Shown: positions 24,821 to 27,080 of the stretch, piece by piece
Layout: every line of letters begins with the position of its first letter
Position numbering within the stretch: the first letter of the stretch is position 1
IMG/VR virus record: IMGVR_UViG_3300032893_000037
Span: 600 to 64,599 of that record
Source: a virus
Strand: one strand, 5' to 3'
DNA length: 64,000 nucleotides
Notes under the pieces: generated by a model
Told to the model about the DNA's origin: nothing
Database searches by the model: none
What the model saw: only the letters and a program-made list of their open reading frames with translations
Made by a program: the position numbers and the translations under genes

Positions 24821-25363
24821 ATGGCCGTGGTGCCGTTCAAAACACAGACGGAAGAAGGTGTCTCGGTCTGGGACATCGCCCGCGAACTGCTAGATATCCA
24901 CAACGGAAACATCAGCGCCGCCGCTGACGGCCTGATCGAAAGGGCCAACCGGGACCAGCGGCTTTACGACGCGATCCTGGCGATGCGCTTCCACCGGATG
25001 TGCGGCGACATCATCCGGGAGGCCCTAGGCACCCAGCGCCGGACGGTCTGGGACCGGCCCGTCGAACAGGCCAAGGAGATGCTGCTCACCCGCGCCACCG
25101 AACGCGCCAACGAGCGCGCCATCTTGGCAAGCGAGATGATGCTGATGGACTTCCCGATCTTCGGCGGCGGCAGACTGCGCAACGCCAACAAGCAGCAGCT
25201 CATCGCCTCTGCCGAACAGTTCGAACAACGCGGCGAGGACATGCTGGCGAAAGCCCGCTGGCTTCGCGCCGTCGCAGCCCAGCTCAAAGGCAAGCGCACG
25301 GTCGGCACCACGCTGACCGAAGACCAGCTGATGACGCTCAAAGCGCGAGCCGAAAATGCTTAA
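24821..25363 (+). CDS. Unknown helical protein, first gene of the TIGR-like operon
   Basis: 180 aa from ATG 24821 (SD gagga); stop overlaps ATG of the Tas ORF. Confidence 0.7.
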   Translation: MAVVPFKTQTEEGVSVWDIARELLDIHNGNISAAADGLIERANRDQRLYDAILAMRFHRMCGDIIREALGTQRRTVWDRPVEQAKEMLLTRATERANERAILASEMMLMDFPIFGGGRLRNANKQQLIASAEQFEQRGEDMLAKARWLRAVAAQLKGKRTVGTTLTEDQLMTLKARAENA

Positions 25364-27080
25364 ACGAACCCCTACGCGGGCCGGTGTTGAAGCGAAACCC
25401 AACCCAGTCAAGCCCGCTGCCGACCACCACCGCGATGGCACCCAAAAACGGAATGTCGGCAAAACTTCGCGGGCCAAGCCGATCACGAAACCCATACAAG
25501 ATCAGCCCGCAGCTGGAGGCGGCAAAACTGCCTCCAGCAAAAATTCGCGCGCCAAGGCGAGATTGACTCCCATCCCAACCGTGCGCGCTGGCGACCAGAA
25601 TTATGTTGATACCCATGTCAGGCGTGTCGCCAAAAATACGCGGACCAAAGCAGCCATGCTACCCAATGTAGTAGCGTCCGCGCCCCCTAAGCCCGGCCAT
25701 CTTATTGACGGAAACCATGCGCTCATTGCCGGGCAAAAGTCTGCCGACCATCCTACCTACGCGACCCATACTGGACCTGTCGGCAGCTCTCTTTTGCGCG
25801 CCAAAAATATGGAGACATCCATCAACGACCAGCGCGCGCCCGGCCATCCTACTGGCGGAAACCACACGCTGACTGCCGGGCAAACTTCAAAGCGCGCCAA
25901 TGCTGGCGAGAACTCCATGCTCCCCTCGCGCGTTCGCCCGGCCAATCATGAATCGCTACCCACGCAGATAGCGCCGGGCAAATCTTCCAAGCGGGCCAAC
26001 ATGAAAATGCAATCCACTGCACGCCAGCCCGCCTCCGACGCCAAACTCCCCTCGCCACCCACTGGTGATCTGCGTCGGAAAAATTCTGCGGCCAACGCTC
26101 CAGCGACACCCGGAAATACACCGCCGCAGGCGGACGCCACCAACGAGGTGAAGCCCAGCACGATGGCGCGTCCGCACTCTACTCAGGCCAATGGCGAACC
26201 GTTACCCATTGCCGTAACGCCTGACGCCGACGACCAACCAGCAAGCGCGAACCATGCACGCCAAGTCGTCGGCAAATCTTCCCGTCGCCATGCAGCATCC
26301 GCAAACCGTGGAACAAGCGCGACGAATGCCGACGACCACCACCAAGGCGATGTCCACATACGACCTGTCGTCGGCCCTCACTCGCCTGCCGTCGCATTGA
26401 TCCAAGAACTACATCGCGACCGGCAAGGCTTCGCCCGCGCCGAAAAATCTCTCACGCTCCAGATCAGAGCCATCTGCCGTCGTCTCTGCGGCGGCGACAA
26501 GGATGCCGCAGCGCCGCTCTATGCCTCGCTCGATGACGACGACGAAACACATCCGCTGAAAGACGCGGCAACCGCCCGCACCGCGCCGTTCTTCACGGCC
26601 CGCAGCGTCATGAATACCAACCGGCGCGAGCGCGAGAAGCAGATGGAAAAACTCGCGCGCACTCTCCCGGCCTACAAGTTCGTGGAATCCATCCGCGGCA
26701 TCGGCGATCTCAGCTTCGCCCAGATCATCGGCGAAACCGGCGATCTCTCCATCTACCGCAATCCCGCCAAGGTCTGGAAACGTCTCGGTCTCGCCGTGTT
26801 CGACGGTCGCGCCCAGCGCCGCCACAAAGGCATGGACCAAAGCGAAGGCTACTCGCCCGAACGCCGCTCCATCGTCTGGAACGTCGGCGAAGCCATCGTC
26901 AAACACCGCGGCGAACCATATCGATCGATCTACGACGAACGCAAAGCCTACGAGCACGCCCGCAATCCGGAGATCACCAAGATGTGGGCGCATAACCGCG
27001 CCAAACGCTACATGGAAAAGCGCGTCATCCGCGATCTCTTCCGGGCATGGCGCGACGAACTGGAAGCCAAATCCTCTTAA
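25356..27080 (+). CDS. TasA-like Nop/IS110-C-terminal-domain RNA-binding protein without nuclease domain (folded part about 26397-27080)
   Basis: Coiled coil then SIRGIGDLSFAQIIGETGDLSIYRNPAKVWKRLGLAV...YRSIYDERKAYE...AHNRAKRYMEK; no DEDD RuvC, no HNH, no IS110 catalytic SG loop. Confidence 0.85.
   Translation: MLKRTPTRAGVEAKPNPVKPAADHHRDGTQKRNVGKTSRAKPITKPIQDQPAAGGGKTASSKNSRAKARLTPIPTVRAGDQNYVDTHVRRVAKNTRTKAAMLPNVVASAPPKPGHLIDGNHALIAGQKSADHPTYATHTGPVGSSLLRAKNMETSINDQRAPGHPTGGNHTLTAGQTSKRANAGENSMLPSRVRPANHESLPTQIAPGKSSKRANMKMQSTARQPASDAKLPSPPTGDLRRKNSAANAPATPGNTPPQADATNEVKPSTMARPHSTQANGEPLPIAVTPDADDQPASANHARQVVGKSSRRHAASANRGTSATNADDHHQGDVHIRPVVGPHSPAVALIQELHRDRQGFARAEKSLTLQIRAICRRLCGGDKDAAAPLYASLDDDDETHPLKDAATARTAPFFTARSVMNTNRREREKQMEKLARTLPAYKFVESIRGIGDLSFAQIIGETGDLSIYRNPAKVWKRLGLAVFDGRAQRRHKGMDQSEGYSPERRSIVWNVGEAIVKHRGEPYRSIYDERKAYEHARNPEITKMWAHNRAKRYMEKRVIRDLFRAWRDELEAKSS
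25376..26375 (+). ncRNA. TIGR-like stem-loop guide array, 20 units
   Basis: Every unit parses as 5-8 bp stem, CCA/CCG, 9 nt, TG/CG/AG, 4 nt, CCA/CCG, 9 nt, TG/CG/AG, complementary stem, e.g. tggcga CCA gaattatgt TG atac CCA tgtcaggcg TG tcgcca (25589-25632). Confidence 0.92.

Follow-up and report, generated by a model that had tools for sequence, protein, structure and literature searches.

An uninterrupted reading frame through a 20-unit stem-loop TIGR array suggests translation of the array as the 5′ portion of a viral tas gene

Can a guide RNA array serve at the same time as coding sequence of its effector protein? The question is raised by a TIGR-Tas locus in viral DNA from a wetland metagenome (IMG/VR record IMGVR_UViG_3300032893_000037, of which positions 600 to 64,599 were analysed; this whole stretch of 64,000 nucleotides is referred to as the window), where an array of 20 guide units lies inside the tas gene's open reading frame (ORF). 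A sequence-only reading of the window had proposed that the tas ORF opens at ATG 25356, overlapping an upstream stop codon, that it passes through the whole array, and that the spacers may be constrained to keep this frame open. The full tas ORF (25356..27080, + strand) indeed has 574 codons, which would correspond to a protein of 62.6 kDa if ATG 25356 is the start, and this ATG overlaps the TAA (25361–25363) of the upstream gene, termed gene X here, by 8 nt. The proposed constraint found support in shuffled versions of the array and, more strongly, in the stop depletion, phase avoidance and coupled start codons of homologous loci. These demonstrated that the open frame is non-random and family-wide, and, judging from the sequences compared, translation of the array is likely to begin at ATG 25356 in coupling with gene X, so that the units would form the 5′ portion of tas, with selection keeping both frame and phase compatible.

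The array (25376..26375, + strand), delineated by a stem-plus-fixed-spacing scan and by covariation, has the published stem-loop TIGR architecture, with units carrying two spacers closed by variable palindromes. Each of its 20 units consists of a stem of 6–9 bp enclosing exactly 30 nt of the form CA-N10-G-N4-CC(A/G)-N10, the order of the elements being stem, box C with (C)CA, 10 nt, the G of box D, a 4-nt loop, CC(A/G), 10 nt and stem. ATG 25356 is situated 20 nt ahead of unit 1, and all 20 units are contained within 25356–26396 (codons 1–347) without any disturbance of the frame. In this segment no stop codon occurs in the tas frame, as had been read from the sequence, versus 8 in each of the +2 and +3 frames and 4, 6 and 12 in the three minus frames. 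The TGA triplets remarked on earlier at box D of units 4, 5 and 16 (25564, 25607 and 26149) are each formed by the TG of box D and the first A of the loop, and all three are out of frame. The units themselves occupy codon phases 0, 1 and 2 in the ratio 8:0:12.

The stop-codon expectation, for which the sequence-only reading had called, was calculated from 10,000 shuffling trials in which the stems and box motifs were kept fixed. When bases were shuffled within spacers and loops, the frame stayed open in 0.28% of the trials; when the linkers were shuffled too, or all variable positions were pooled, this happened in 0.03%, and 5.5–8.3 stops were expected from the shuffles. Contigs of two wetland DNA runs, one of them possibly the source of the window, were identical to the locus wherever they overlapped it and showed no variation.

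The same frame was followed through 133 homologous loci fetched from genomes, mostly prophage-like regions of Alphaproteobacteria, and from viral contigs, which formed 79 clusters at 90% identity; the tas frame was set by tblastn and the units were detected with the window's own motif, so that the detector is tuned to this window. The 34 non-redundant arrays of at least three units lying upstream of tas (13.8 kb) contained 23 stops in the tas frame versus 111 and 146 in the other two, and 24 of them had no stop at all in the tas frame versus 4 and 1 in the others. By contrast with these, 14 arrays downstream of tas showed no frame bias (28, 22 and 28 stops). The in-frame depletion is thus about five-fold and is confined to upstream arrays and to the tas frame, with a binomial P of 2e-23 for 23 of 280 stops, kinship of the loci being ignored. 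Frame preservation across homologous arrays, which the sequence-only reading had proposed to examine, was found in these 24. In a minority, the remaining 10 of the 34, in-frame stops of the kind named there as counter-evidence do occur, which means that read-through of the array is common in the family and not obligatory.

The position of the units relative to the codons follows the same direction. Within open frames of homologous loci, units fall into phases 0, 1 and 2 as 92:6:80, versus 18:17:27 for untranslated downstream units. Of the three readings of a unit, that in phase 1 is the most prone to stops, and it is avoided because the TG of box D followed by a loop beginning with A is then read as TGA. 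Such a TGA spans the junction of box D and loop in 19 of 69 units downstream of tas (28%) and in 51 of 315 upstream units (16%), and there are hints in these sequences of a relaxation of box D from UG to CG under translation. Furthermore, 87 of the 151 unit-to-unit periods are multiples of 3. Loci that were missed by the strict motif yet possess a long in-frame extension were found to hold variant arrays, either with a 36-nt inner part or with an altered box C. As a separate observation, a sub-variant array, whose inner part measures 36 nt and whose longer, CCTGAAAAGGCCA-like loop is conserved, is located about 300–400 nt upstream of tas in three loci (L063, L103 and L001), where it is also within a long in-frame extension of tas.

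With regard to the place where translation would begin, the homologues again resemble the window. Gene X (24821..25363, + strand) has its likely start at ATG 24821 behind GAGGA, the longest ORF extending from GTG 24560, and 47 homologous loci have it in the same orientation directly ahead of the array and tas (tblastn; residues ~82–267 of the long ORF), while searches of Pfam, PHROG, NCBIfam and the ESM Atlas gave no match for it. Among 38 non-redundant loci, with start codons assigned by rule, at least 18 have a tas start that overlaps the stop of gene X by 4, 8, 11 or 14 nt and that mostly follows GGAGG. The overlap takes the form ATGnnTRR or ATGA. In many stop-free homologous arrays the first ATG in the tas frame lies 9–80 nt before the first unit, and often no start codon was found near the conserved Tas core. 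Some of the arrays with in-frame stops possess a start of their own near the core (a GTG behind AGGAGG in locus L089, an ATG behind GGAG in L010), from which the family appears to have two modes, the window representing the mode of read-through. In the window, only one in-frame start, TTG 26397, is available close to where the Tas domain begins, and it lacks a Shine-Dalgarno-like motif, just as had been pointed out from the sequence; the next in-frame ATG is codon 419 and lies already within the domain. Gene X is a candidate for a third component in this clade of TIGR-TasA systems.

A single transcript covering gene X, array and tas fits the signals found around them. A promoter-like motif, TTGGCA-N2-3-GTGTGCTGG-NN-GTGTACAG, is positioned ahead of gene X (24759..24786, + strand), and a copy of identical type follows just after the tas stop (27088–27114). 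These are the only two matches in the 64-kb window, where none is expected by chance, and none lies between the 24759 and 27114 copies; a generic sigma-70 scan lists the 27088 copy only. The two sites probably represent a phage-specific promoter class, their function as promoters being deduced from the sequence. Neither the generic sigma-70 scan nor the motif search revealed a promoter-like site within 25356–27080, and no terminator-like site was found on the + strand within the block of gene X, array and tas. Weaker relatives of the motif are seen elsewhere in the phage, for example at 57500–57516 on the minus strand.

The product of the full ORF falls into two very different parts. The array-encoded N-terminal extension (25356..26396, + strand) amounts to 347 residues with a high content of Ala, Pro, Thr and Ser, an isoelectric point of 11.0 and a grand average of hydropathy of −0.9, a composition that would suit a disordered region, and family searches of the 574-residue product found no match for residues 1–347. 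The Tas core (26397..27077, + strand; 227 residues, 26.3 kDa) consists of a coiled coil and a Nop/IS110-type RNA-binding domain. It is matched by the NCBIfam model NF052498 (TIGR_Tas_endo) with 104.9 bits against a cut-off of 100 and, in sequence-profile searches of the PDB, by TasR (9mty, E 3.6e-23) and TasH (E 1.2e-7). An AlphaFold2 (AF2) model of the core has a predicted local distance difference test score (pLDDT) of 89, and its top Foldseek matches are TasR and TasH, followed by IS110-family recombinases. PF02371 is the sole Pfam domain across all 574 residues, and neither an HNH nor a RuvC nuclease domain was found there by Pfam. Residues 348–574, having no nuclease domain, are therefore TasA-like and, as judged from sequence and model, are a nuclease-less Tas of the TasA type. 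Residues 330–343, near the end of the extension, are of low confidence in the model with pLDDT 89. A single-sequence AF2 model of the full-length product contains almost no secondary structure before residue 344; its pLDDT of 39.8 is low throughout, including the Tas core, and the model is therefore no guide to disorder.

Taken as a mechanism, the likely reading would run as follows. Transcription would probably start from the promoter-like motif that precedes gene X, and ribosomes ending gene X would reinitiate at the overlapping ATG 25356. The reinitiated ribosomes would have to cross all 20 hairpin units to reach a Tas core that has no usable start of its own. Selection would purge in-frame stops from spacers and linkers, and would hold each unit in one of the two phases that avoid UGA at the junction of box D and loop. 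The product would be the 62.6-kDa Tas with a basic, apparently unstructured tail of 347 residues, and the guide precursor would presumably be the same RNA as the tas mRNA. A cut between units would part the Tas core from its start codon, and hence each transcript could be either translated or made into guides. It is plausible, though speculative, that binding or processing by Tas feeds back on Tas synthesis. A wider joint reading is offered only tentatively: the genetic code would shape the guide repertoire (no in-frame stops, two of the three phases, and, in translated arrays, a box D that drifts from UG to CG), Tas binding to or cutting the hairpins of its own 5′ coding part would provide stoichiometric feedback by which the amount of protein is adjusted to the supply of guides, and the conserved, translationally coupled gene X would be the third component.

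Several observations weigh against translation of the array, apart from the in-frame stops of 10 homologous arrays. The Shine-Dalgarno motif at ATG 25356 is weak, consisting of GAG only versus GGAGG in most homologues, while TTG 26397 aligns with the start position of short homologues. Database homologues of the Tas core have called lengths of 220–526 residues with variable, low-complexity N-terminal tails, and many of them start 4–8 residues ahead of the conserved helix, so that a tail seems dispensable for Tas function. The homologous loci share ancestry, and their counts overstate the number of independent events. None of the public runs listed with the window sequence is an RNA run. Finally, the G+C content at third and second codon positions (GC3 and GC2) of the array frame is 0.61 and 0.57, versus 0.73–0.76 and 0.45–0.46 for the Tas core and for gene X; such values are not coding-like, from which selection seems limited to stops and phase.

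This last feature, together with the composition of the array strand (36.6% C, 23.9% G and 14% T), is shared by two other explanations of the open frame. C-rich, G- and T-poor composition is typical of Rho loading sites, and the frame could be kept open only for the sake of ribosome cover, protecting a C-rich leader from Rho-dependent termination or decay and bringing ribosomes to the Tas core, with the tail a tolerated by-product and with no feedback. The conserved coupling to gene X would suit such a role, as would selection seemingly confined to stops and phase, with neither a codon-usage signal nor a conserved tail sequence, and the absence of stop depletion from downstream arrays, which need no read-through to tas. 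The homologous upstream arrays with in-frame stops, some of them with a start of their own near the domain, speak against it, since those loci apparently manage without ribosome cover. Protection of this kind is a genuine possibility, though we hold it to be clearly less probable than not; it also overlaps with the favoured explanation, the array being translated in both and the purpose alone being different. The composition can be read in another way, namely that T-poor sequence has few stops anyway and that the frame is open by chance in G+C-rich DNA, with a 227-residue Tas made from TTG 26397 behind an untranslated leader. The alignment of this TTG with the starts of short homologues and the GC3 of the array frame would agree with it. 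However, the same T-poor DNA contains 8 stops in each of the other two + frames, the shuffles leave the frame open in no more than 0.3% of the trials, TTG 26397 is not preceded by a Shine-Dalgarno motif, and the frame-specific depletion of stops, the avoidance of one phase and the placing of the start codon are found repeatedly in other loci, all of which makes a chance origin of the frame highly improbable.

It could also be imagined that the frame is translated and that the working Tas nevertheless arises from an internal start or by proteolytic removal of the tail, the guides being derived from separate transcripts within the array. The array does contain several ATG and GTG codons in the tas frame that have weak Shine-Dalgarno-like motifs, for example ATG 26163 (codon 270) behind GAGG, and homologues with a distal in-frame stop restart within the array; furthermore, the preprint by Xu et al. 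(bioRxiv 10.64898/2026.09.09.750476, Sept 2026) leaves room for own promoters of intragenic guide RNAs (tigRNAs). Against this, the stop depletion extends over the whole array up to the start that overlaps gene X, and not over the last units alone, and no promoter-like site was found in 25356–27080. An internal origin of the working protein is accordingly regarded as unlikely, and translation of the whole array from ATG 25356 is retained as the explanation best suited to the locus.

In the units of the array, the 5′ stem always ends in C and the 3′ stem always begins with G. Pairing at the six inner stem positions holds in each of the 20 units, with 6–11 double changes per pair, and the covariation score of the stems is 0.70 versus 0.20 in shuffles, none of 500 shuffles scoring as high; in slid registers the score collapses. 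This covariation, seen without any conservation of amino acids, ruled out a true repeat protein whose DNA merely resembles hairpins, as did the untranslated units downstream of tas in homologues and a GC3 that is not coding-like. CCA after the 5′ stem never varies; at the second box C, 18 units have CCA and 2 have CCG. Box D keeps its G on both sides, the preceding base being relaxed to C, T or A. At the spacer A position box D reads CG in 12 units, TG in 6 and AG in 2. Across the homologous loci, CGA at the junction of box D and loop is commoner in upstream (25%) than in downstream units (13%).

The linkers after units 2, 8, 10, 12 and 18 contain CTT, and CUU at the stem's base is the mark of a processing site of the stem-loop type. 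Units tend to be paired: seven neighbouring pairs are separated by linkers of 0–1 nt or share one base (periods of 43–46), and these alternate with A-rich or CTT-containing linkers of 5–11 nt (periods of 50–54). The array may be processed into two-unit RNAs. A spacer-less hairpin with a 9-bp stem and a 9-nt GGCAAAACT loop (25512..25538, + strand) is inserted between units 3 and 4 within the open frame; it could be what is left of a unit, or an element with a part in processing or structure. Tandem Repeats Finder missed the array because its units are too divergent, and a generic repeat finder returned fragments only. A match to the Rfam family asX3 was rejected as a sub-threshold chance hit. 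Beyond the array itself, the 64-kb window contained no dual-spacer self-target (reverse complement of A with B, or B with the reverse complement of A, i.e. rcA+B or B+rcA, gap 0–2, at most 2 mismatches in 18 nt).

If the array is translated, two codes are laid upon the same bases, and the targets that a spacer can encode are limited by the need for sense codons. The supply of effector protein would also be tied to the fate of the guide precursor. In practical terms, the frame and the phase rule could be used by annotation tools to separate translated from untranslated arrays, and reprogrammed spacers in engineered loci of this kind would have to avoid in-frame stops. Gene X, as a conserved partner gene, is of interest for the biology of TIGR-Tas systems.

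Among known systems, SgrS/SgrT and RNAIII combine coding and non-coding roles in one transcript, mostly in separate segments, whereas in the window each guide unit would itself be read as codons. The bridge RNA of the IS110 family is a single non-coding unit in the 5′ untranslated region and not a translated array. The bridge RNA/recombinase pair (IS621, PDB 8WT6) shares with the window a homologous RNA-binding domain (PF02371, Foldseek), a guide encoded just upstream of the protein on the same strand and guide loops in two parts; the Tas of the window differs in having neither a DEDD/RuvC nor a Tnp domain. Closer is the stem-loop TIGR-TasA system PlTasA from the gut of Peromyscus leucopus described by Faure et al. 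2025 (PMC12045711), who found units with two spacers of 8–12 nt, box C (CCA), box D and a variable palindromic closure. It has in common with the window a nuclease-less Tas of coiled coil and Nop domain and tandem two-spacer units, but its array was described as intergenic sub-arrays (PMC12045711), and box D at spacer A is relaxed in the window.

The closest counterpart is found in the preprint of Xu et al. (bioRxiv 10.64898/2026.09.09.750476). It states that stem-loop arrays can occupy the 5′ end of tas with the frame unbroken, that such intragenic arrays correspond to disordered regions and that processed intragenic tigRNAs exist for BlTasA, and it suggests a link between tigRNA maturation and Tas translation. 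On this account the kind of arrangement is already known, and the present locus is a long, clean and extreme example of it. Shared with the intragenic arrays reported there are the position of the units in the 5′ end of the tas ORF and the intact frame; the region, which has no predicted fold there, may be disordered in the window as well. In contrast, the entire array of 20 units, long for a stem-loop system, is placed within the ORF here, and the intragenic unit of BlTasA maps to a wedge loop, whereas the array of the window forms an N-terminal tail. Neither the portion of that preprint at hand nor the other TIGR papers searched mention the stop-depletion test, the codon-phase rule or the coupling to gene X. 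For stem-loop systems, a concrete model of tas and guide co-expression is gained, a matter that the 2026 preprint leaves open, and the known arrangement is supplemented by statistics on the depletion of stops, by a phase rule driven by UGA and by a coupling to gene X that is conserved.

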